The position numbers were made by a program, and so were the translations under genes. From Patescibacteria group bacterium (GTDB taxonomy: Bacteria; Patescibacteriota; Patescibacteriia; GWA2-46-9): a stretch of 64,000 bases of DNA. Shown one piece after another: positions 3,076-62,674 of this stretch. The stretch spans positions 4,253-68,252 of the forward strand of contig JBAZXG010000001.1 of NCBI GenBank assembly GCA_041660005.1. The letters are read 5' to 3'. The notes beneath the pieces were generated by a model. It saw only the letters and a list, made by a program, of their open reading frames with translations, was not told where the DNA came from and made no database searches. Position 1 is the first letter of the stretch; every line of letters starts with the position of its first letter.

Positions 3076-3149
3076 TGGCAGGAGCGGTAGGAATCGAACC
3101 TACGACGACCGATTTGGAGTCGGTCATGATGCCACTTCACCACGCTCCC
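3076..3149 (-). tRNA. tRNA-Trp (anticodon CCA)
   Basis: The reverse complement folds as a cloverleaf: acceptor GGGAGCG/CGCUCCU, anticodon stem ACCGA/UCGGU, loop CUCCAAA, T-loop GGTTCGATTCC, encoded CCA. Confidence 0.85.
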
Positions 3150-3811
3150 ATAGTTTGCGCTACTGCATGATATATAGATGCTAAACTTCTAGCAATACTA
3201 GCATCATTGTACCGTACCGATAAACAACCTTGATACCCATCTCGAACTCGCACACCAGTATTCGGCTTTTGGTATGATCTCATGAACTGCGAAATGGGTA
3301 TACCTGTTACGCGCGACCAAAACTGCAACTGTTCCTTTTCGTTATGATATCCGTGTAAATGAATAAGCGCATGGAGCTTACCATTGTCAATATTGTAACC
3401 GCGTCTAAGTGCAGTTAAAAAGGCGGACACCAAATCAGGATCAGAATTTGTGAACTGCAATGTTGACAAGTACCTTTTGCTGCCCTCACACCAAAAAATA
3501 AGAGCAGCGAATAACCGCCAAAAATCTTTATTCCTGGTGCCAAGATGAGCAGCTACCAGTTTTTTTGCTTCTTGCGACCGCTTCGCTTCTGCTTCATCGC
3601 GATGAACAGCTTGTAGGTGTCGACCCCGGGCACGACCCAGTGCTGAATTATTCAACAATTTATTTTTTGCAGCAATTGATAAGTCAACATCACGCACCCA
3701 GATATAGGCTGTGCTCTTAGCGATACTTAAAAGTTTCGCAATATCGTCGATTGATTTCCCGGACGCTCTTAACAGTTGGGACTCCTTCTTTTTATTGGTT
3801 GGGTATAACAT
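3137..3811 (-). CDS. HTH plus LAGLIDADG-like homing-endonuclease-like protein. It is a paralog of the 59996-60685 gene.
   Basis: N-terminal HTH (SIDDIAKLLSIAKSTAYIWV). Single LAGLIDADG-like motif LIFWCEGSK, aligned with LAILYAGEGSK in the paralog. The 3' end abuts or overlaps tRNA-Trp. Confidence 0.55.
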   Translation of the reverse strand: MLYPTNKKKESQLLRASGKSIDDIAKLLSIAKSTAYIWVRDVDLSIAAKNKLLNNSALGRARGRHLQAVHRDEAEAKRSQEAKKLVAAHLGTRNKDFWRLFAALIFWCEGSKRYLSTLQFTNSDPDLVSAFLTALRRGYNIDNGKLHALIHLHGYHNEKEQLQFWSRVTGIPISQFMRSYQKPNTGVRVRDGYQGCLSVRYNDASIARSLASIYHAVAQTMGAW

Positions 3812-27199: not shown

Positions 27200-28387
27200 T
27201 TACTTAACAATCTTTGTTACCACACCGGCACCAACAGTGCGACCGCCTTCGCGAATAGCGAAGCGTTGCTTCTCTTCAAGAGCCACCGGCACAACCAACT
27301 TCACAACCATTGTTGTGGTGTCGCCCGGCATGACCATTTCGGTCCCCTGTTGCAATGTAATTTCACCCGTCACATCCGTTGTACGCATATAGAACTGTGG
27401 CTTGTAGCCGGTAAAGAACGGCTTGTGGCGCCCACCCTCTTCTTTGGTCAAGGTGTATACCTCGGCTTCGAATTCGCTGTGCGGCGTTACCGTACCTGGC
27501 TTGGCCAACACTTGTCCGCGCACGACATCGTCTTTCTTCGTACCACGAAGAAGAATACCGGCATTGTCACCAGCGCGACCTTCTTCAAGGGACTTGTTAA
27601 ACATTTCAATCCCCGTGACCGTTGTCTTTTGCGTGTCTTTGATACCGATAATTTCGACTTCATCGCCGACTTTGACGATACCGCGCTCGATACGTCCGGT
27701 TACCACAGTTCCACGACCTTCAATAGAGAAAATGTCTTCAATCGGCATGAGGTATGGCTTTTCTGTCTCACGAACCGGTTCTGCGACGTAGGTATCAAGT
27801 TGATCAACGAGATCAAGCACTGGTTTTGCGAACTCTCCTGTTGGGTTTTCGAGAGCTTTCAATGCTGAACCGCGAATGATCGGAGTCTTGGCACCGTCGA
27901 AATGGTACTTCGTCAAAAGCTCCCGAATTTCCTCTTCAACGAGGTCAATCAGTTCAGGATCGGAAACCATGTCGACTTTATTGATAAACACCACAATCGT
28001 CGGCACACCGACCTGATAAGCAAGCAGAATGTGTTCACGTGTCTGTGGCATTGGACCGTCTGTTGCTGAAACGACGAGAATCGCTGCGTCCATCTGCGCT
28101 GCACCCGTAATCATGTTCTTGACATAGTCGGCGTGACCAGGACAGTCAACGTGAGCGTAGTGGCGCTTGTCTGACTCGTATTCAACGTGCGCAGTGGCAA
28201 TCGTAATACCACGGGCTTTTTCTTCCGGCGCTTTGTCGATTTCGTTAATACCTTTTTTCTGCGCGGTTTTACCAGCAGCAGAAAGAACTGCGAGCAATGC
28301 TGCAGTTAAAGTTGTCTTGCCGTGGTCAACGTGACCAATAGTCCCGACGTTGACGTGTGGCTTTGAACGGTCAAACATTTCTGCCAT
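27200..28387 (-). CDS. tuf: Elongation factor Tu
   Basis: [25 protein letters not shown] GTPase motifs. 395 aa. Confidence 0.95.
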
Positions 28388-28536
28388 AGTATGGTCTCCT
28401 TCTCAACGACCCCCGGCCTTTAAAAAGTCCAGGGTTTTACCCAATCGTTGAGGAAATAAAAAAACTTAATGGTAAACAATATAATGGACCGAAATTTCCG
28501 GCCCTTCATTAGCAGACGCTTCTAGCGTCGCGAATT

Positions 28537-28565
28537 ATCCTAACAGGCGGGTGATAATATGTCAA
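28537..28565 (-). promoter_or_regulatory. Putative sigma70-like promoter for tuf (TTGACA-17-TAGGAT on the minus strand)
   Basis: Reverse complement of 28537-28565 reads TTGACAtattatcacccgcctgtTAGGAT. It lies between the hairpin terminator at 28590-28620 and the tuf start. Confidence 0.3.
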
Positions 28566-28589
28566 GCTTCATATCACAACAGCAAAAAT

Positions 28590-28620
28590 CCCCATTTCGT
28601 GGGGATTTTTGCTGTTCGTT
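28590..28620 (-). terminator. Perfect 11-bp hairpin AAAAATCCCCA-TTTCG-TGGGGATTTTT, bidirectional terminator-like
   Basis: Immediately downstream of the 28636-30834 gene. A-run and T-run flank the stem. Confidence 0.55.
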
Positions 28621-28635
28621 TGTATTTTCTCCTAT

Positions 28636-30834
28636 CTAACGCGTCGCCCCAGAGTACGTGATGGCCTGCATTATATTCCAGTCATTTGTTGAATTGGGCG
28701 TACGACCGTAAATATCTTCAAATATCTCAATGCCCTTCTTCTCACTCTCTAATTTTCGGTTTTCAGCTTTTTGCCTGAGACCATACGCCATAACGGTAAC
28801 GGCGGCATTATCCTTGCCGTTCTGAAGGTTTGCTTCCCGCTTATAGATGTTTTTGAACTCAATTTTTGCACGACTTTCTGCTACCGCACTCTTCTTCTCT
28901 GGCCATCTGCCATTAGCAATTTTAATCGCATCAGTGAGTTCATCCTCGCTTTCGGGTAACTTGCCAAAGGCAGATTTGTACGAATACATCACTGCCGCTC
29001 GCTCTCCTGCTCCAAGCTTTTGTGTATTATCATCCACGCCGTAGGTGATAAAATTACTTAAGGCCTCTTTTGCCTCTTCAGATTTCATCACTTGACCAGA
29101 TGTCAATGCTCTAAGGTATTTGATTTCGGTCTCCTGCTCTTTAATGATGTTTCTAAGTTCTTTCAGTTCTCTTAGGATGGAATCAACATTATTTTCTTTC
29201 AGTAGGTACGCTTTCTCGCCGATGGTTTGCAACTGTTCGTCGGCAACTGAATCTTCCTTGCTCTCATCGGTACGAATTTGCACCTCTGTTTCTACTTCCG
29301 TCTCGCCGACTTCAGTAGTGCCAGTGCTCCCTCCACCTCCGCCGCCACCTGAACCGGAAGAAACAAACCACACAACGTTTGAACGGTAGGTTTTACCTGC
29401 CTTGCGGTCTATTAAAGAAATATAAACCCCCAGCGGTGGAGTACTCCCCTTCTTAATGGCGAACCAGAGATCATCCAGTTCTGCTGCTTTTTTCAGCCCG
29501 CAGAAACCATATATTCTTTTACCGTTTGCTTCGAATATCTCTACCCAGGTTCGGGAAGAGTTCACGTTAAGTCCGCACGCCGGCAAACTTGGCGCAACTT
29601 CAAACAGGGTATCAGGAAATGATGAACGGTTTGTTACGCTCAACCGGTAACGTACGAATTGACCGTCATTCGTTGAATAACTTTCAGTTCCTTTAAAGAC
29701 CAGCACAGGCTTAACGACCAATTCATCCTTATAATCAACGACAAAAACGTTACTGTCGTCATACCAACCTGACGCACCCGACGCACACGACTGACAGGCA
29801 ACCGTGATGACGTATTTGCCCGGGGCAATGCCGTCCGGAATGGTCCAAGCATAGGAACCGGTGTTCTTTATGCTGAGCGCAATGTTCTTTGTTTTTGTAT
29901 TTTCCCGGTCATTCAAGAGCACGTTGACGAGCCAGTTTGCTTCACCGCCACTCCAGGTGATATTACGCGTGTCACCAATGTACCAGGTTTCCCCGACGTT
30001 TTCTGGCGTATGAACAACGATAGGTTTCGTAATGTTCACGCTGCCATTAATCGTAAAAACGGGGCCGTCGCCAAACCACCCGGTTGTACCCATTTTGCAA
30101 CTCTGGCAAGCAACCCTAATAAAATATTCTCCCGGCTCAAGGTCGCGAGGAATGGTCCAAGAATAGAAACCGGTATTCTTTATGCTGAGAGCAATTTCTT
30201 TTGTGCGAGCAGTTTCTTTACCGGCTTCGATTAAGAGAACATTCACCGACCAGTCGGTTCCTCCGCCACCCCAAAAAATATTATAGGTCTGCCCAGCGTT
30301 CCACACAGCACCCGACTTCTCCGGAGTTGTCACGACAATGGACTGGTTAGTCAGCGGCGGTATGGTTACCTTCTGTTCCAGGGAGTTATTTTCTTCGTTA
30401 AATTCTGAAAGAATATTTTTAGGATCAACGGTTGCTCTGAAATAATACGTTTCGCCAGGTACAGCGTCAAAATATGCTGCCCCGCCGGTACCGTTTGTTT
30501 TACATTCACCCGGAGCAACCGCACTAACTCCCACCAAGTGATGGACAACCCGTGGCGCTCCCATGCCAATACGCTGAGTATCAACTTGAACCTCGCCTGA
30601 ACTCACTCCTCCGTTATTACAAACCGTAACCAAAATGACGCGATACGGTGTCGTGTCCGCTGCTATGGCGGACACGGATAAATCAGCTGACCGAACCGGA
30701 AAACCTAAAGACCCGCTCGAATCATCTGACGAAACTTCGGCTGCAGAAACAACGCTGACAGAAAAAACGGACGCACTAACAAGACTTACCGCAAACAGAA
30801 TCCCAACAAAAAGCGACATTTTTCTTCCTGACAT
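28636..30834 (-). CDS. Large secreted/surface multidomain protein. Domains in order: signal peptide, CARDB-like domain, two tandem ~100-aa Kre9/KNH(GPI-anchored)-like domains, beta-rich domain, poly-Gly linker, coiled-coil/alpha-helical C-terminal domain.
   Basis: N-terminal hydrophobic signal. Internal repeat IVVTTPEKSGAVWNAGQTYNIFWGGGG...YFIRVACQSCK versus IVVHTPENVGETWYIGDTRNITWSGGE...YVITVACQSCA. GGGGGGG linker. Confidence 0.7.
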   Translation of the reverse strand: MSGRKMSLFVGILFAVSLVSASVFSVSVVSAAEVSSDDSSGSLGFPVRSADLSVSAIAADTTPYRVILVTVCNNGGVSSGEVQVDTQRIGMGAPRVVHHLVGVSAVAPGECKTNGTGGAAYFDAVPGETYYFRATVDPKNILSEFNEENNSLEQKVTIPPLTNQSIVVTTPEKSGAVWNAGQTYNIFWGGGGTDWSVNVLLIEAGKETARTKEIALSIKNTGFYSWTIPRDLEPGEYFIRVACQSCKMGTTGWFGDGPVFTINGSVNITKPIVVHTPENVGETWYIGDTRNITWSGGEANWLVNVLLNDRENTKTKNIALSIKNTGSYAWTIPDGIAPGKYVITVACQSCASGASGWYDDSNVFVVDYKDELVVKPVLVFKGTESYSTNDGQFVRYRLSVTNRSSFPDTLFEVAPSLPACGLNVNSSRTWVEIFEANGKRIYGFCGLKKAAELDDLWFAIKKGSTPPLGVYISLIDRKAGKTYRSNVVWFVSSGSGGGGGGGSTGTTEVGETEVETEVQIRTDESKEDSVADEQLQTIGEKAYLLKENNVDSILRELKELRNIIKEQETEIKYLRALTSGQVMKSEEAKEALSNFITYGVDDNTQKLGAGERAAVMYSYKSAFGKLPESEDELTDAIKIANGRWPEKKSAVAESRAKIEFKNIYKREANLQNGKDNAAVTVMAYGLRQKAENRKLESEKKGIEIFEDIYGRTPNSTNDWNIMQAITYSGATR

Positions 30835-31074: not shown

Positions 31075-31112
31075 TTTACACATTTTTGCGCGTACGCGCA
31101 AAAATGTGTAAA
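31075..31112. promoter_or_regulatory. 38-bp perfect palindrome TTTACACATTTTTGCGCGT|ACGCGCAAAAATGTGTAAA upstream of the secreted-protein gene
   Basis: Seen directly in the sequence. A near-identical 40-bp palindrome at 59063-59102 keeps perfect symmetry through paired substitutions. Confidence 0.5.
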
Positions 31113-31248
31113 AATTCTAAAGTACGAAAGCGCTAAATAGTAATCAATGACCCCGCCCCAAAGGGGACGGGGTATGTAATGGTATTTTGTCTTCTGCAAT
31201 GGTAACCTCGCGGCAAGCCGACAAGGTATTGGCAAAAATAAAAGCTGC

Positions 31249-33327
31249 CTACTTCTTTGCCCGCTCCCCAACGATCGTTTCGGTAACGTTTCGAGGAACT
31301 TCAGAATAGTGGGCAAACTCCATGGAGTGGCTAGCGCGGCCCTGAGACATTGAGCGTAATTCCGTCGCGTAACCGAACATTTCAGCCAAAGGAACCAGTG
31401 CGTCAATAACCCGCATACCACCGCGTTCACGCATTTCCTGTACCTGTCCACGGCGTGCATTAACGTCTCCAATAACATCACCCATAAACTGCTCCGGAGT
31501 AATGATTTCTGTTTTCATCATCGGCTCCAAAAGTACAGGATTTGCGCGCTTACAACCTTCTTGGAAAGCCATCGATGCAGCGATTTTAAATGCCGCCTCA
31601 GAAGAGTCAACGTCGTGGTAAGAACCGTCATACACCGCAACACTGACGTCAATCATGGGGTACCCGGCAAGCACACCACGGTCTAAGGCCTCTTGTACGC
31701 CCTTACGCACGGCCGGAATGTATTCGCGAGGGATAGCGCCGCCTTTAACCTCGTCAACGAATTCGAACCCAGCGCCTTCTTTGCGAGGGCTAACGCGCAA
31801 CCAGCAGTGACCGTATTGTCCGCGTCCGCCAGATTGCTTAATGTATTTTCCTTCAGCTTCTGAAACTTTACGAATAGTCTCGCGATAGGCCACCTGTGGC
31901 TTACCAACGGTCGCTTCAACTTTAAACTCTCGCTTCATGCGGTCGACAATGATGTCGAGGTGCAATTCTCCCATACCCGAAATAATGGTCTGCCCAGTTT
32001 CTTCGTCGCTCCTGACCTTGAAGGTTGGGTCTTCTTCAGCCAATTTTTGTAGGGCAATACCCATTTTTTCTTGATCTGCCTTGGTTTTTGGTTCAACCGC
32101 AACGGAAATAACTGGTTCAGGGAAGGTAATCGATTCAAGCACAACGGGTCGCGCTGGATCACAAATGGTGTGGCCGGTAAAGGTGTTACCTAGCCCGACA
32201 GCCGCGGCAATGTCGCCTGCGTAAACCATGTCGACTTCTTCGCGACTATTGGCGTGCAAGCGCACGATGCGACCGATGCGCTCGCGTTCATCAGTAACCG
32301 TGTTTAACACATACGAACCCGACTTCAATGTTCCAGAGTAAACGCGGAAGAAACAAAGCTTGCCGACAAATGGGTCAATAGCAACCTTAAAGGCGAGCGC
32401 GGTAAAGGGCTCGCTGTCGTCAGCTGGAATCAAAACCTGTTCTTCGCTGTCTGGTATAGTCGCCATGACTGGCGGTACCTCAATTGGTGAAGGCAAATAA
32501 TCAACCACCGCATCAAGGAGCTGTTGCACACCCTTGTTCTTCAACGCTGAGCCGCACAGTACGGGAATAATAGTCTGGGCAATAGTCGCTTTGTGGAGCA
32601 CGCGCTTCAAATCAGCAAGCGACGGCTCAGTGCCGCCAAGGTACTGTTCCATCAACACTTCGTCTTGCTCAACAATGGCGTCAATGAGTTTCGCGCGGTA
32701 GGTTGCTACCTTTTCTTTCATGTCGTCTGGAATATCTCGTTCTTCAAATTTCGTTCCTAGTTCGTCCGTATAGAAAAAAGCTTTCTGTGTCAAAAGATCG
32801 ATAATTCCAAGAAAATTCTCCTCAGCGCCAATCGGTAGCTGAATGGGGTAGGCCAGAGGGTTCAATCGTTCGTGAATAGAAGCAAGGTCAGCATAAAAAT
32901 CCGCACCCGTACGATCCATTTTATTGATGAAGCAAATGCGCGGCACGTGGAATTTGTCTGCCTGGTGCCAAACTGTTTCAGACTGCGGTTCAACGCCGGC
33001 CACGCCGTCAAAAACGACGACACCGCCGTCTAACACGCGCAGCGACCGCTGTACCTCAACCGTAAAGTCGATGTGCCCGGGCGTGTCGATAATGTTGATG
33101 CGGTTGTCCTTCCAGAAACAGGTGGTAGCTGCAGCAGTAATGGTGATACCCCGCTCGCGCTCTTGCTCCATCCAGTCCATGGTCGCTTCACCCTCGTGCA
33201 CTTCGCCTATTTTGTGTTTTTTCCCAGTATAGAAAAGGATGCGTTCCGTCACCGTTGTCTTACCCGCATCAATGTGGGCGATGATACCGATGTTGCGTGT
33301 TTTTTCAAATGTATAATCGCGAGGCAT
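31249..33327 (-). CDS. fusA: Elongation factor G
   Basis: [25 protein letters not shown]. 692 aa. Confidence 0.95.
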
Positions 33328-33617: not shown

Positions 33618-34085
33618 TTAGCGCGCGAAGTGAGAGAATGCGCGGTTCGACTCTGCCATCCTGTGGATGTCCAGCTTTTTCTTTATGGCTGCGCCTTCTC
33701 CCTCGGCAGCTGACATAATTTCGTGTGCTAATTTTTGCTGCATAGGACGACCCTTACCGTTTCGTGCGGCTTCAATAATCCACCGATATGCTAGCATTTG
33801 GCGCCGTTCTACACGTACCGGAACAGGGATCTGATAGTTACCGCCACCAACTCGACGACTTCTAACCTCAACCACTGGTGCGACGTTCTTAATGGCTTCG
33901 TCAAATACTTCTGTCGGGTTTTTCTTGGTCTTTGCCGCTACAATATCAAACATGCCGTAAACAATTTTTTGTGCGGCTGCTTTTTTCCCACGACCCATGA
34001 TGTAGTTGATGAATTTTGCAATATCAACCCGCTGAAACTTTGGATCAGGGGCAATCGTTCTTTTTGGTGCTTGCTTACCTCGCAT
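33618..34085 (-). CDS. rpsG: 30S ribosomal protein S7
   Basis: IAPDPKFQ..., conserved S7 core. Confidence 0.9.
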   Translation of the reverse strand: MRGKQAPKRTIAPDPKFQRVDIAKFINYIMGRGKKAAAQKIVYGMFDIVAAKTKKNPTEVFDEAIKNVAPVVEVRSRRVGGGNYQIPVPVRVERRQMLAYRWIIEAARNGKGRPMQQKLAHEIMSAAEGEGAAIKKKLDIHRMAESNRAFSHFAR

Positions 34086-34090
34086 AATTA

Positions 34091-34510
34091 TTACTTCTTA
34101 GGTCTCTTCGCGCCATAGCGGCTGCGAGAGCGGTTGCGGTTAGCAACGCCTTGTGTGTCATAAACACCACGCACGATAGTGTAACGAACACCTGGTAAGT
34201 CTTTAACACGTCCCCCACGAATAAGGACGATAGAGTGTTCCTGTAGGTTGTGGCCAACACCAGGAATGTAAGCCGTTACTTCCATGCCGTTTGATAGTCG
34301 AACACGGGCAATTTTACGCAGCGCCGAGTTTGGCTTTTTCGGTGTTTGTGTCGTTACTTTAAGACAGACTCCCCGTTTGAACGGGCTGCCCATAGCAATA
34401 ACACTGCGACGACGGTGCAGTGTATCCAGCACGGTCTGCATGGCTGGTGACTCAGATTTTCTGTTTTTGCTCCGTCGCGCACCGCGTCGAAGCTGATTAA
34501 TAGTTGGCAT
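34091..34510 (-). CDS. rpsL: 30S ribosomal protein S12, with a roughly 16-aa insertion near the N-terminus
   Basis: MPTINQL...KRGVC...[11 protein letters not shown]...[14 protein letters not shown]. The insert [16 protein letters not shown] is unusual. Confidence 0.9.
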
Positions 34511-44890: not shown

Positions 44891-45487
44891 CTAGTTGGGC
44901 GTCGTCTGCGAACCGCACGGCGTACTGCATGTCGGACATGCAGGAGTCCCGTCGGAACATAGCCGCAAAAGCGAGATGACGCCGTCGTCGGGCATCTGAC
45001 AGACCTCCGTGTTCGCGTCCCATGAGTTCAACGCGACACTCGTGAGCTCCAGATCAATGATGGCCCATGACTGATTCCAGACGTCGTCGCCGCCGACTTG
45101 GTCGGCCGGAAGGGCCCAGAAGTTCTGGAAGAAAAGATGGGCGCACCGCTGCGTCTTTTTTCCCCGGAACTTCAAAATCGCCGGTTTCAGCGAGTTGCCC
45201 AAGACCGCGCCGTCCTGGTCAGTGTCGAAAGCCCTTCCAGTGACGAGCATTTTCTCGTACTGGTTTGCCCTCGTGTAGCATGCGGCGACCTCGAGGAGGT
45301 CAGTCACCTGACACGAGTCGCCGGACCAAAGCTGGCGATCGACGTACGTCCACGAGCCGTAGTCGAAGTACGAGCACCCGACTACTGACGCATTGCGGAA
45401 CGTCGCCGCCTCGGCTTGCGGGGCCGTGGCGAACAACGAAACGACGCACAAGAACGCCGCGAGAACGAGAAAACGGATACGCTTCAT
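44891..45487 (-). CDS. Secreted cysteine-rich hypothetical protein on a GC-rich island
   Basis: Signal peptide MKRIRFLVLAAFLCVVSLFATAPQAEA. About 12 Cys. Perfect 11-bp hairpin terminator GGCGGCTCCGG...CCGGAGCCGCC at 44808-44853. Confidence 0.55.
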   Translation of the reverse strand: MKRIRFLVLAAFLCVVSLFATAPQAEAATFRNASVVGCSYFDYGSWTYVDRQLWSGDSCQVTDLLEVAACYTRANQYEKMLVTGRAFDTDQDGAVLGNSLKPAILKFRGKKTQRCAHLFFQNFWALPADQVGGDDVWNQSWAIIDLELTSVALNSWDANTEVCQMPDDGVISLLRLCSDGTPACPTCSTPCGSQTTPN

Positions 45488-56512: not shown

Positions 56513-57664
56513 TTATGCTTTCGCCGCCACAACTTCCCGGCGTTTCTCTACGGCAGCCGCGAGCTCCCCAAAAAGCTCCTCGGTGGTTGACCAGCCCATG
56601 CACTCGTCAGTGATGGACTGCCCATAGACTAAAGGAACTCCCTCCTTACGGTCTTGCCGTCCAGGAACCAGAAACGACTCCATGCCGATGCCGACGAGAG
56701 GTTCCGCGCCCTTTCTGACTTGCTCCGCGATGCCGTGAACCACGAACGGCTGCCGATGATGATTGAACTGACTGTTCCCGTGACTGGCATCGACCATCAC
56801 TTTGGTATCGATGCCGGCTCCAAGCAAGGCATCACTTGCGCGCCGAACAGCCAGCGAGTCACAGGCCGCATGCGTTCGAGACCCTCGCAGCATCAGACAA
56901 CAATCAGGGTTGCCGGCCGTCTCGACGATCGCCGCAAGGGCGGTCTTTGTCACCGACAGAAAGGACTGCTGGCGACGAGCTGCCTTGATGGCGGCGATGG
57001 CAACGTCAACGTCCCCGGTTGGACCGCTCTTGACGATGACGGGCATTGAAAGCCCGCTCGTGAGTTCCTGGTGTGGCTGACTGCCGGTCATTTGAGCACC
57101 GACAGCACCCAGACTGATCAAATCAGAAACCCACTGGGGCAGCATGACGTCCGAAAACTTCACAGCCGTCGGAACGCCGAGTTTTGCCAGGTCGATCAGT
57201 AGCTTTCGAGCTACCCGTAACCCTTCATTGATCTGACAGCTACCGTCCAGAAAAGGATCGTTGACGAGACCCTTCCATCCGGTCTCTGTCCGGTGTTTTT
57301 CGATGTACGTCCGCACCACAAACAAAAGGTTTTTGCCGAGCGCCTTCTGAACACCTGCGAGACGTTCTGCGTACTCGACTACCGCCTCGGGATCATGCGC
57401 AGAGCACGGCCCAACGGCTACCAGGAGCCGGTCATCTCGCCCATGCATGATATCGGCTATCTCTTGCCTCCACCGGATGACATTGTCAGCGATGGCACCT
57501 GTCAACGGTAGCTCCTCGATCAAGATCGCGGGTGGCTTCAAAGCACGCGTTCTTTTTATCCTGACATCATCAACCGTTGCATAGAAACCATCAAACTTCA
57601 TCTTCCTCTCCCCTTGCCGCTTTCTGCTACGGCCCGCATCCCTGGTCTCACTTGCGTGAGACAA
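56513..57664 (-). CDS. aroG: 3-deoxy-7-phosphoheptulonate (DAHP) synthase, class I, in GC-rich DNA
   Basis: LLVAVGPCSAHDPEAVVEYAERL motif. About 58% GC. Confidence 0.7.
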   Translation of the reverse strand: MSHASETRDAGRSRKRQGERKMKFDGFYATVDDVRIKRTRALKPPAILIEELPLTGAIADNVIRWRQEIADIMHGRDDRLLVAVGPCSAHDPEAVVEYAERLAGVQKALGKNLLFVVRTYIEKHRTETGWKGLVNDPFLDGSCQINEGLRVARKLLIDLAKLGVPTAVKFSDVMLPQWVSDLISLGAVGAQMTGSQPHQELTSGLSMPVIVKSGPTGDVDVAIAAIKAARRQQSFLSVTKTALAAIVETAGNPDCCLMLRGSRTHAACDSLAVRRASDALLGAGIDTKVMVDASHGNSQFNHHRQPFVVHGIAEQVRKGAEPLVGIGMESFLVPGRQDRKEGVPLVYGQSITDECMGWSTTEELFGELAAAVEKRREVVAAKA

Positions 57665-59062: not shown

Positions 59063-59102
59063 TTTTACACAATTTTGTGCGTACGCACAAAATTGTGTAA
59101 AA
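59063..59102. promoter_or_regulatory. 40-bp perfect palindrome TTTTACACAATTTTGTGCGT|ACGCACAAAATTGTGTAAAA
   Basis: Paralog of 31075-31112. Differences between the copies are symmetric. Confidence 0.5.
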
Positions 59103-59878: not shown

Positions 59879-59955
59879 TGGTGGGCGGCAGAGGATTCGA
59901 ACCTCTGACCTTTTGCGTGTCGAGCAAACGCTCTAACCAACTGAGCTAGCCGCCC
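59879..59955 (-). tRNA. tRNA-Val (anticodon GAC). Position 33 is C.
   Basis: Reverse complement GGGCGGCUAGCUCAGUUGGUUAGAGC G UUUGC UCGACAC GCAAA ... GGUUCGAAUCCUCU GCCGCCCACCA. Confidence 0.8.
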
Positions 59956-59995: not shown

Positions 59996-60685
59996 TCAAG
60001 CTTTTTCAACGACGCTTTGCATATAGGAATTTGCCAACAAAACAAGTTTCCGCTGAATTGCTACATTACCACATCGAACATGACAAACGCCTTTATATGA
60101 ATCGTACGTCTTAGACCCTAAAGTACGGCGATCTATATTAACCTGTCTAAAACAGGATAAGGGCAAGGCAAGCTCTTTTGACCAGTACTTTTTCAACTGA
60201 CTTGGATTCTGATCCGCCCGCAAATATAATTCGCATCTCATTTTCTGGATGTCGACCTTATAAACAGTACGCAGTACTTGTACAAAAAATCTTAGAATTA
60301 AAGGATTGGAACTGCCGAGCGCTGTCTCCAAATTTTTCTTGGAACCTTCTCCTGCGTAGAGAATTGCCAATGTAAGCTCAAGAATAGAACGATTGTTAAC
60401 GGGCAGTGAAAGCAGTGTCGCATTCGCTTGTTGCCTGGCTTCTTCTAAACGTTTTAATTTATCGTTGTTATGCCATACGACTGCTTTTTTCCGTGCCGAC
60501 ACAAGAGCATCTTCCCAACGTTTATCTAATTTCTTTTTTTGAGATGGAGTCAACGATATACCCCTTAACCAACCGCTGAGAGTCGAGCGCGGTATAGCGA
60601 GTTTCTGCTCAATGGTACGTATCGACATACCTCGTTTTCTTAACTGTATTGCACGCCCTTTAAATTCAGTCCACTGTGATTTCAT
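59996..60685 (-). CDS. HTH plus LAGLIDADG-like homing-endonuclease-like protein, paralog of 3137-3811, immediately 5' of tRNA-Val
   Basis: MSIRTIEQKLAIPRSTLSGWL HTH. LAILYAGEGSK motif. Collinear alignment with the paralog across the C-terminal domain. Confidence 0.55.
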   Translation of the reverse strand: MKSQWTEFKGRAIQLRKRGMSIRTIEQKLAIPRSTLSGWLRGISLTPSQKKKLDKRWEDALVSARKKAVVWHNNDKLKRLEEARQQANATLLSLPVNNRSILELTLAILYAGEGSKKNLETALGSSNPLILRFFVQVLRTVYKVDIQKMRCELYLRADQNPSQLKKYWSKELALPLSCFRQVNIDRRTLGSKTYDSYKGVCHVRCGNVAIQRKLVLLANSYMQSVVEKA

Positions 60686-60821: not shown

Positions 60822-61634
60822 CTACGAACGAATCCCCTTGCTTACCAGGAACTGCTTCCCGTGACCGAACTCTGTGTTGACCGGAACACCGTCGGCGCAC
60901 ATGCCACCAGGAGCGGCGCACTCCTCCTCGGTCAGGACTCGTCTCGTAACATTGAGCAGAGCTTCGATCCGAGGTACGCCGAGATCTTCTGCGGTGATTC
61001 CACCGCCATTGACCAAGACCCCGACGCCAACCACTTCTCCGCCGGCCTGCCTGACCGCCGCAATCGATCCGTGGGCCGAGAGGCCTGTTGTGAAAACGTC
61101 CTCGAACACAGCGACACGTCTGCCTTTGACGTCTGCCGCAAAGCCGCGATTCAGGACGAATCCTTGCCTCATCACGACGAGAGTCTGCCCCGGTAACAGA
61201 AGGAGAACACCGTTGTCGCCGACATCTGTCAGTGATGTCGTTATGCGAACGGGCCGAGATCCTTCGCCGCATGCAGCGATGACCTGCTGTTCGTGCTCGC
61301 AGTACAGCGACAGAACCTCGGGGCGATCCGGACGCAGACGAGTCAGGTGGTGCCCCCCCCAGTGCGACAATGCTACGCCGCCCACCGCTGGAGAAACGAC
61401 CGCATCGATGCCCTCGTCGGCGAAACGCCGTGCCAACATAGCACACAGCGAGGAGGCGACAGACGAAATGCGAGTGCCGCGGTCCTTTGCCACGTAGAGG
61501 TTCAGATGCTTTCTGCTAACCCCTACGAAGTGCCCAGTCAATACTGCGCCACAGCCAGCGAGCAACGAACTTGTTTGCTCGCTCTCTTCCTGTTCAATCT
61601 TCATGGTTCTTCCCTTCCCTGCCGGCGGCTCCAC
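60822..61634 (-). CDS. pyrE: Type I phosphoribosyltransferase, likely orotate phosphoribosyltransferase, GC-rich
   Basis: PRPP-binding motif VAVFEDVFTTGLS. Sits next to pyrF. The start is probably the internal Met (MKIEQEE). Confidence 0.55.
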   Translation of the reverse strand: MEPPAGKGRTMKIEQEESEQTSSLLAGCGAVLTGHFVGVSRKHLNLYVAKDRGTRISSVASSLCAMLARRFADEGIDAVVSPAVGGVALSHWGGHHLTRLRPDRPEVLSLYCEHEQQVIAACGEGSRPVRITTSLTDVGDNGVLLLLPGQTLVVMRQGFVLNRGFAADVKGRRVAVFEDVFTTGLSAHGSIAAVRQAGGEVVGVGVLVNGGGITAEDLGVPRIEALLNVTRRVLTEEECAAPGGMCADGVPVNTEFGHGKQFLVSKGIRS

Positions 61635-61663
61635 CTGAGCCGCCGGGTTGATGGTCTCGACCG

Positions 61664-62674
61664 CTACGCCGCGGCCAGAATCCCAGTGATCTCTTGGTGT
61701 AATTCTGCCACCACCTCTCCAGAACGGGCTTCGTTGTCTCCGCCGTCGGAAACGAAGATGGCATTGCGGGACATGTTGACGACGGCGTTAATCTCGCCAT
61801 CACCGTTTCGTGCCGCCAGCAGCGAACCCCTGAGAGCGCCTGCCTGCTTGCCGATGCCCGGGATCAACAGCGGTCCATCGTAGATCTCACGAATACGGCC
61901 GAGCTCCACCGGATACGTCGCACCTGCCACGAGTCCGATGTTTCCGTTCTCGTTCCAACACTTGGCGTATATAGCCACCTCTTCGTACAAGGGAAGGCCG
62001 GGGCCGTCGGATTCCACCAGAAGCTTTTCCTGAAACTCGGTAGCTCCGGGGTTTGTCGTATGGCACAAAACGAAGCAGCCCTTGTCTGGACGACTAAGGA
62101 AAACGTCCAGAGAACCCGCCTTGCCGAGGTAGCCATGCAATGTCACGGCGTCGGCACCGACAAGATCGAGGAAACGAACATAGGCATCGTTCGTATTCCC
62201 GATGTCGCCGAACTTCGCGTCTAGAATCACGATCGCATCCGGCGCAACCGCATGGATGTACGCGATGGTAGCAATCAAGGCGTCGATACCGGCGCCGAGC
62301 TCAGACAGATAAAACGCGAGATTGATCTTGAAGACCCGAACGACGCCGAGGTTCGCGCTGACGATCCCTTGGTTGAATGCGAGAATCGTCTGGCAGACCT
62401 CGCTCTTCAAGGCCATCCGAGAAATCTCGGTCTGCAAGATTCTCGCTGCCTCCACCCCCACTCCCGGATCGAGCACCTGGCTCATTTTCACCGTCGCGAG
62501 AGCACGCCACGCAATCGAAATGGGCGCATTCGCTCCGGCTAGCTTCACGTAACCCGGAATCTTGGCGAGTTCGGAATCCAGGCCGACACAGACGTGCCGA
62601 CCAGCCGCTTGTACGTTTCTCCAAAGCTCCCTAAAGTCTCGCATGACTTCTCTAACCTCCAAAACCTGCAACAA
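61664..62674 (-). CDS. pyrF: Orotidine 5'-phosphate decarboxylase, long (type 2) form, GC-rich
   Basis: ILDAKFGDIGNT signature. 336 aa. Confidence 0.65.
   Translation of the reverse strand: MLQVLEVREVMRDFRELWRNVQAAGRHVCVGLDSELAKIPGYVKLAGANAPISIAWRALATVKMSQVLDPGVGVEAARILQTEISRMALKSEVCQTILAFNQGIVSANLGVVRVFKINLAFYLSELGAGIDALIATIAYIHAVAPDAIVILDAKFGDIGNTNDAYVRFLDLVGADAVTLHGYLGKAGSLDVFLSRPDKGCFVLCHTTNPGATEFQEKLLVESDGPGLPLYEEVAIYAKCWNENGNIGLVAGATYPVELGRIREIYDGPLLIPGIGKQAGALRGSLLAARNGDGEINAVVNMSRNAIFVSDGGDNEARSGEVVAELHQEITGILAAA

Follow-up and report, generated by a model that had tools for sequence, protein, structure and literature searches.

In a 64,000-nucleotide (nt) stretch of DNA from a Patescibacteria group bacterium (GenBank assembly GCA_041660005.1, contig JBAZXG010000001.1, positions 4,253 to 68,252; hereafter the window), the fusA and tuf genes of the str operon are separated by an open reading frame (ORF) of 732 codons. 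This gene and its product are the subject of the present analysis. We are highly confident that the product is a native, secreted, modular envelope protein, and that the gene sits in an open fusA-tuf joint of a type characteristic of the Patescibacteria, or candidate phyla radiation (CPR). The C-terminal part of the protein is, judging from sequence, a member of a large, highly conserved but unannotated family that marks exported CPR proteins. To our knowledge the Patescibacteria are ultra-small organisms, all cultivated members are episymbionts, and little has been learned of how they attach to hosts or organize their surfaces. The closest relatives of the window, judged by elongation factor EF-G (the fusA product), are Ca. 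Falkowbacteria (76% identity) and other patescibacterial metagenome-assembled genomes (MAGs, 73%).

The window holds a typical ribosomal super-operon, in which the following genes concern us:

27200..28387, minus strand: tuf, with rpsJ and the S10 operon downstream
28636..30834, minus strand: the complete ORF of 732 amino acids (aa), counted from an alternative upstream start
31249..33327, minus strand: fusA, upstream of the 732-aa ORF
33618-34085, minus strand: rpsG, upstream of fusA
34091-34510, minus strand: rpsL, upstream of rpsG

The order and strand are those of the canonical str operon of Escherichia coli, Bacillus and most bacteria, with rpsL, rpsG and fusA contiguous and with tuf leading into rpsJ and the S10 operon. 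The difference lies between fusA and tuf, which are 2861 nt apart as against 18-262 nt in nearly all sampled non-CPR loci. Besides the 2.2-kb gene, a predicted terminator and a promoter-like site lie in this interval, and the canonical arrangement, with tuf directly after fusA in one transcription unit, is not present here. A sequence-only reading of the window had proposed that a 2.2-kb gene splits the two; the ORF does lie between both, on the same strand, and recomputed positions agree for all the sequence features that reading had named.

A search for full-length homologues returned a single match, the identical database copy P0001 (727 aa, beginning at the second ATG); all other matches were to parts of the protein. 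Logan contig L001 (SRR18595301) carries the identical gene as an inverted duplication, folding back exactly at a 38-nt palindrome described below (centre 2761-2796). The palindrome explains the fold-back; the duplication is an assembly artefact, not a real inverted repeat, and the contig of P0001 therefore yields no independent gene context.

The protein and its C-terminal module family

The protein is divided as follows:

30742..30834, minus strand: Sec-type signal peptide, residues ~1-31 (MSGRK, hydrophobic core, VSA|AE; assigned by sequence inspection)
30376..30636, minus strand: CARDB domain, residues 67-153 (Pfam PF07705, 26.6 bits against a cut-off of 22.7)
30049..30342, minus strand: Kre9_KNH domain 1, residues ~165-262 (Pfam PF10342, immunoglobulin (Ig)-like, contains CQSC)
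29737..30027, minus strand: Kre9_KNH domain 2, residues ~270-366 (Pfam PF10342, Ig-like, contains CQSC)
29356..29736, minus strand: Ig/FN3-like beta-sandwich module, residues ~367-493 (invariant Cys pair, no Pfam family)
29242..29355, minus strand: flexible linker, residues ~494-531 (a run of seven glycines followed by an acidic, Thr/Glu-rich stretch; pI 4.05)
28639..29241, minus strand: all-helical, CPR-specific C-terminal module, residues 532-732 (from family search and structure model)

The N-terminus and the Pfam domains agree with the view, already taken in the sequence-only reading, that this is a real gene encoding a signal-peptide, multidomain protein of extracellular type. The CARDB-like domain and the two tandem Kre9/KNH domains with CQSC motifs, which it had also named, all score above Pfam thresholds. 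Kre9_KNH matches in two stretches at 53 bits, against a gathering threshold of 24.6, and together with CARDB these domains span residues ~45-366. The Kre9_KNH coding DNA is a tandem duplicate, with 102 nt at 77% identity placed 312 nt apart. The protein thus passes both Pfam thresholds and resembles other CARDB and Kre9_KNH proteins in that respect. However, these are generic beta-sandwich modules that do not in themselves define a function, and their combination with the CPR module is without a full-length homologue. On the strength of its Ig-like domains an adhesin-like nature is plausible for the protein. It carries no membrane-spanning or lipid-anchor signal.

The beta-rich domain of the earlier reading is a conserved beta-sandwich, modelled with a predicted local distance difference test score (pLDDT) of 89, and forms a discrete conserved unit. 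It is about 50% identical both to segments of unrelated multidomain proteins and to stand-alone proteins of 132-202 aa (P0267-P0278), one of them from Nostoc. Twenty-six positions are invariant in this family including the Cys pair, which likely forms a disulfide. By these alignments the module would represent an undescribed small domain family that also occurs as a stand-alone secreted protein in unrelated bacteria. The poly-Gly linker that had been noted is the G7 run following this module.

The C-terminal domain had been described as a coiled coil. It is indeed helical, but the coiled-coil label is not supported as it stands: the AlphaFold2 monomer model is a compact all-helical module of 11 helices (pLDDT 93, predicted template modelling score 0.88), and the coiled-coil-type Pfam matches to COMP and Fib_alpha reach only 13-15 bits against thresholds of 24-30. 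The first ~60 residues of the modelled module could still pair between subunits. An internal duplication has modest support (hhalign probability 78%, E = 1.7e-5).

Residues 520-732, used as the query of an exhaustive HMMER search, retrieved 1208 cluster representatives at E<=1e-3, of which 633 reach E<=1e-30. For the best 150, identity is 47-67% and E lies between 1e-60 and 1e-77; these belong to proteins of 230-1494 aa. We retrieved 255 members (152-1494 aa), 195 of which were sufficiently complete for the N-terminus to be assessed; a hydrophobic N-terminus, scored by a simple hydropathy test and not by a dedicated signal-peptide predictor, is present in 163 of these. The module occupies the extreme C-terminus of 155 of the 255 proteins, and in a further set of 87 it is followed only by a tail of ~46-52 aa; all eight tails examined carry TSP3-type DxDxDG calcium-binding repeats. 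The partners on the N-terminal side are varied and include Kazal inhibitors, TSP3_bac, CARDB, TIG and lectin-like regions. Alignment A1, with the window sequence as its first row, has 26 invariant columns and the motifs LGxGERAAV, AYGLR, NRN..SE and W...YSG, by which the window module is defined as a member. Organism names attached to the members are Patescibacteria, Ca. Falkowbacteria or an unclassified 'bacterium' only. The level of conservation is about that of EF-G between the same kinds of genomes (60-76%).

No Pfam family, NCBIfam family or solved-fold match was found for the module. This includes the established surface-attachment modules SLH, PG_binding_1, LysM, CWB2, the C-terminal domain (CTD) of the type IX secretion system (T9SS) and LPXTG, none of which gives a Pfam or NCBIfam match or fold similarity. 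DUF4214, a helical repeat with a 'G+xP...W' motif that occurs in secreted proteins, was considered as an identity for the module and rejected. There is no Pfam match to it at E<=10, the sole trace being an insignificant BFVD match (E = 8), and the listing of the 25 families most often matched by 45 module members (183 families matched overall) does not include it. Full-text searching of the literature found no description either of the module or of CPR fusA-tuf insertions.

The fusA-tuf junction in Patescibacteria and the origin of the gene

Is the interruption of the operon peculiar to this genome? Synteny was compared over 81 fusA loci from reference genomes. Where non-CPR loci carry both genes the gap is 18-262 nt, with the exception of one Ignavibacteria locus (432 nt), whilst at 14 CPR-like loci it is 454-5066 nt. 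Compact CPR junctions are restricted to one locus from Saccharibacteria (L021) and one from Minisyncoccia (L039). Two more CPR loci have no tuf after fusA within 3.7 kb or 8 kb. In the first of these, a Moraniibacteria MAG (L009 10254-13417), two genes come after fusA, one for a membrane protein with several spans and the other an ORF of ~240 aa, with no tuf within the 3.7 kb; both products look glycosyltransferase-like by eye only.

The contents of the CPR gaps differ, several of the long ones carrying unrelated envelope genes. Type IV pilin-like genes with an N_methyl motif lie between fusA and tuf at L005 (10204-11343) and L006 (2726-4129 and 4173-5519), one of them with He_PIG and Fib_succ_major domains. 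PG_binding_1 proteins are encoded in the gaps of L027 and L061, a DKNYY protein in that of L027, and proteins combining CARDB/TSP3 with the module occur among the gap contents also. The long gaps of L007, L010 and L011 encode proteins without a signal peptide or envelope domain. In the short gaps lies a small conserved ORF whose Phd/YefM-like N-terminus scores below threshold (E 0.001-0.04). This ORF (81-140 aa; 'INLxKKTGDRxxxFD...YVxMxLxEYExL') lies directly upstream of tuf in many CPR genomes, and was not detectable by tblastn anywhere in the window. It was placed at:

L002 10087-10419
L003 3897-4319
L004 10207-10452
L005 11414-11707
L006 5729-6010
L007 10750-11124
L010 4052-4456
L077 10742-11098
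L120 11678-12082
L121 2346-2762

The 732-aa ORF itself is missing from the three closest relatives, L002, L003 and L004 (fusA 73-76% identical), and the insertion is thus not conserved across the lineage; conservation throughout the lineage is what the sequence-only reading had considered would count against it. A metagenome scan with the module alignment located one lineage (L120 and L121, fusA 74% identical to that of the window) in which a 962-aa member of the module family directly follows fusA, with a gap of 4745 nt in L120. The L120 protein was examined as an orthologue of the window protein and rejected as such: only the module aligns, with 53% identity, and the N-terminal parts do not. 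Members that are not syntenic share 66-67% identity with the window module, more than the L120 protein does, which indicates that the two proteins are not simple orthologues.

The junction in CPR is therefore best described as a loosened operon joint with lineage-specific genes, often a landing place for envelope genes, and the window gene is one lineage-specific occupant of that slot. The placement of the gene had been called unusual. That is correct in comparison with model bacteria but not within Patescibacteria, where an expanded junction is the usual state, with envelope genes in the larger gaps.

The gene looks native to its genome. In GC content (0.47), GC at third codon positions (GC3, 0.46) and codon usage it matches ordinary window genes, no flanking direct repeats were found, and there is no transposase or integrase among the window ORFs. 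Taken together, these marks of a mobile element or genomic island, an anomalous composition included, are lacking, and for these reasons we regard the ORF as a genuine gene of a CPR bacterium. The alternative is that a recent, horizontally acquired or mobile insertion broke an ancestral fusA-tuf operon. The absence of the gene from the closest relatives, the presence of its own terminator and a full-length match only to an identical copy would all suit such an event. They are set against the typical GC and GC3, the lack of direct repeats or mobility genes and the open state that the junction already has in CPR relatives lacking this gene. In addition the C-terminal module is named only from Patescibacteria, so any transfer would stay within the group. 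We judge a recent insertion to be very improbable. The gene was also considered as a component of anti-phage defence, and this was rejected, PADLOC matching 0 families.

One incidental point concerns the names of the relatives. MAGs L003, L005, L008, L010, L011 and L028 are titled 'uncultured Gammaproteobacteria bacterium'. Their fusA products are 62-73% and their tuf products, where present, 75-78% identical to those of the window, and fusA, tuf and the operon structure are all closest to those of Patescibacteria. On these sequence comparisons the labels are probably wrong.

Transcription signals between fusA and tuf

The signals of interest are:

28578-28616, minus strand: hairpin past the stop codon of the gene, a predicted intrinsic terminator (stem of 17 bp, perfect; -27.4 kcal/mol, z = -9)
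28565..28537, minus strand: tuf promoter-like site, TTGACA-17-(TG)TAGGAT (TG extension, 10/12 matches)
28388..28536, minus strand: structured tuf leader (~150 nt, -47.8 kcal/mol, z = -3.2)
31150-31173, minus strand: GC-rich hairpin that lacks a U-tail, ~75 nt past the fusA stop
31075-31112, unstranded: 38-nt perfect palindrome upstream of the 732-aa ORF
59064-59101, unstranded: second copy of the palindrome, with two substitutions per arm that are mirrored so that the palindrome is still perfect

The strong downstream terminator of the sequence-only reading is borne out as a predicted hairpin with a U-run. Its core is AUCCCCA-CGAAA-UGGGGAU, followed by UUUUGCUGUU on the minus strand, and an A-tract and a U-tract flank the GC core. 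The sequence is convincing as a terminator and, being symmetric, could act on either strand.

The tuf promoter-like site begins 13 nt past the terminator, and 149 nt separate its end from the tuf ATG. It had been suggested that tuf acquired this promoter. The site is present, but its acquisition through the insertion is not upheld, as six CPR relatives without the gene have near-consensus sites. In these six, 11/12 matches lie 136-264 nt upstream of tuf (0.17 expected from shuffles), with the pattern TTGACA, 16-17 nt, then TAxAAT or TATTAT. When the window and 18 relatives are considered together, nine loci have sites with at least 10/12 matches as against 1.8 expected. At several loci a strong promoter-like site falls inside the small ORF that precedes tuf. 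The promoter-like sites close to tuf in relatives without the gene are no consequence of the insertion, and on these predicted sites independent transcription of tuf appears to be shared by the clade, being either older than the insertion or unconnected with it. The str operon of E. coli has secondary tuf promoters inside or after fusA. The likeness is that transcription of tuf need not depend on the ribosomal protein genes before it; the difference is that in the window and in its CPR relatives the site occupies a long intergenic or small-ORF region just before tuf, and that in the window a terminator directly precedes it.

The tuf leader is strongly structured, with two 5' hairpins and a long 3' stem which pairs a U-run with the Shine-Dalgarno region; it contains a terminator-like hairpin (GGGCCGGAAATTTCGGTCC then a U-rich tail). 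A conserved tuf leader was considered and rejected, the upstream regions of relatives failing to align. The only Rfam matches in the window are tRNAs, so that neither tuf nor the gene has a recognized leader or riboswitch close by.

On the fusA side the picture is different. The hairpin at 31150-31173 was not called by the terminator scan and is not a canonical terminator, and a search of the 415 nt that separate fusA from the gene gave no sigma-70-like promoter. With neither a U-run nor a spacer promoter, read-through from fusA is possible. This invites the proposal that the gene resides in the str operon to gain very high co-transcription from the rpsL promoter, the product being an abundant, S-layer-like structural protein. 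The gene does lie on the operon strand, downstream of a hairpin that would plausibly allow read-through and of a spacer with nothing promoter-like, and arrays of Ig-like domains ending in a conserved terminal module resemble the architecture of S-layer proteins (described in general terms in preprint 10.1101/2024.05.28.596244). The codon usage is that of ordinary genes (score per codon -0.022, ordinary mean -0.019, tuf +0.041, fusA +0.023), although bias is small in this genome and the discrimination is weak. The gene is missing from the three closest relatives. No full-length homologue was found beyond an identical copy, which one would not expect for a major structural protein, and the module family is dispersed across genomes rather than tied to the str operon. 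We consider this proposal improbable. The related statement in the sequence-only reading, that the protein occupies the most highly expressed locus, likewise finds no support: the codon usage is ordinary and no convincing promoter of its own was found for the gene.

The palindrome upstream of the insert, also named in that reading, was found as a perfect 38-nt element. A second copy would be expected by chance at a level of 0.01 matches. It closely follows a terminator, and a membrane-protein gene lies ~140 nt downstream of it; both copies have a hairpin or terminator before them and, at a distance of 140-260 nt downstream, a gene for an envelope or membrane protein. There is no U-run after either copy on either strand, and the element is therefore not a canonical terminator; by its sequence an operator, a cruciform or an RNA hairpin is possible.

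A candidate envelope-anchoring role for the module

How might these observations fit together? We suggest that the protein is exported by the Sec pathway with cleavage of the signal peptide. The mature N-terminal region, which is variable, would be the ligand-binding or display part and consist of four Ig-like beta-sandwiches in series (CARDB, the Kre9_KNH pair that arose by recent duplication and the FN3/Ig-like module), and the Gly-rich, acidic, flexible linker would join it to the conserved helical module. The module would tether or assemble otherwise hypervariable proteins on the CPR envelope by way of a constant partner, which may be the wall, the S-layer, the membrane surface or the module itself, and so serve as a functional analogue of SLH, peptidoglycan-binding or other wall-anchoring modules. 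Transcription would stop at the gene's own terminator and restart for tuf from a tuf-proximal promoter of the type general in CPR.

The proposal draws on a pattern of variable head and constant tail across more than 1000 protein clusters. A module about as conserved as EF-G, attached to N-terminal parts that do not align with one another, suggests a constant partner in the cell. There is a parallel with modular Gram-positive surface proteins that carry SLH, PG_binding_1, CWB2 or LPXTG, in which a signal peptide and variable Ig-like or binding domains accompany a conserved terminal module shared by otherwise unrelated proteins; moreover PG_binding_1 proteins hold the same fusA-tuf slot in other CPR genomes. 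The window module differs in having no sequence or fold similarity to those modules, and the protein has no LPXTG motif or C-terminal transmembrane helix; anchoring is here a proposal.

Several points weigh against the proposal. The charge of the module is unremarkable, with a pI of ~8 for the globular part, and there is no obvious electrostatic signature for wall binding. No conserved gene neighbours of the family point to a partner, the three sampled contexts being assorted, unrelated housekeeping neighbourhoods. Enrichment of the module at the str operon was considered and rejected, the count being 3/80 metagenome loci, two of these from one lineage, which is by rough estimate close to chance. 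For P0002, the best N-terminal homologue, the precomputed Pfam assignments include PG_binding_1, and neither of the module searches retrieved it; this hints at a domain swap, but the argument is weak. The lack of a sigma-70-like promoter in the fusA-gene spacer, noted above, belongs here also.

The principal competitor is that the protein is released to the medium or to a host cell, the module being the working end, for binding to a host surface or as an effector, or else an oligomerisation domain with the Ig-like domains as spacers. Some family members are barely more than a signal peptide and the module, such as P0113 at 230 aa, and in these the module could act alone. The partners include Kazal protease inhibitors, which typify secreted, soluble factors; weak matches to the coiled-coil types COMP and Fib_alpha come from the module's N-terminal helices; and a membrane-spanning or lipid-anchor signal is lacking. 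On the other hand, a working end that faces diverse hosts or ligands is expected to vary and the module is instead the most conserved part, whilst what is attached to it varies freely, a pattern seen typically in anchoring or sorting modules directed at the cell itself. On balance release is unlikely, yet it deserves more credence than the other alternatives discussed.

Taken alone, an anchoring or assembly role of the module on the envelope falls a little short of an even chance in our estimation. The account as a whole, when weighted toward its mechanistic claim, is the best explanation that we can offer and we lean slightly in its favour. A broader version can be put forward only tentatively: that the module has a new fold and targets proteins to the envelope throughout the Patescibacteria, as a domain not described before that would do for CPR what SLH, LPXTG or the T9SS CTD do elsewhere. 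These episymbionts would use it to display a large, fast-changing repertoire of binding domains, protease inhibitors and calcium-binding repeats at their surface, and the fusA-tuf joint would be one slot at which lineages exchange such host-interface genes.

If the module is a common envelope handle for hundreds of variable exported proteins, then it would provide a sequence signature with which to list the CPR surface proteome from metagenomes, a defined biochemical target and a display scaffold. The split between fusA and tuf is unusual by textbook standards yet common in Patescibacteria, and the module family is the more interesting outcome of this work. A practical consequence is that fusA-tuf adjacency, often taken as universal, is unreliable in Patescibacteria, where tuf generally appears to own a promoter.

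Two further features of the window may be recorded. Three ORFs (44891-45487, 56513-57664 and 60822-62674) have a GC content of 0.57-0.60 and GC3 of 0.62-0.77, against ~0.47 in the rest of the window, and may be foreign; the first encodes a small signal-peptide protein. Two ORFs of ~225 aa (3137-3811 and 59996-60685, minus strand) have similar, helix-turn-helix-like N-termini, and both are placed directly upstream of tRNA genes, tRNA-Trp at 3076-3149 and tRNA-Val at 59879-59955, respectively.

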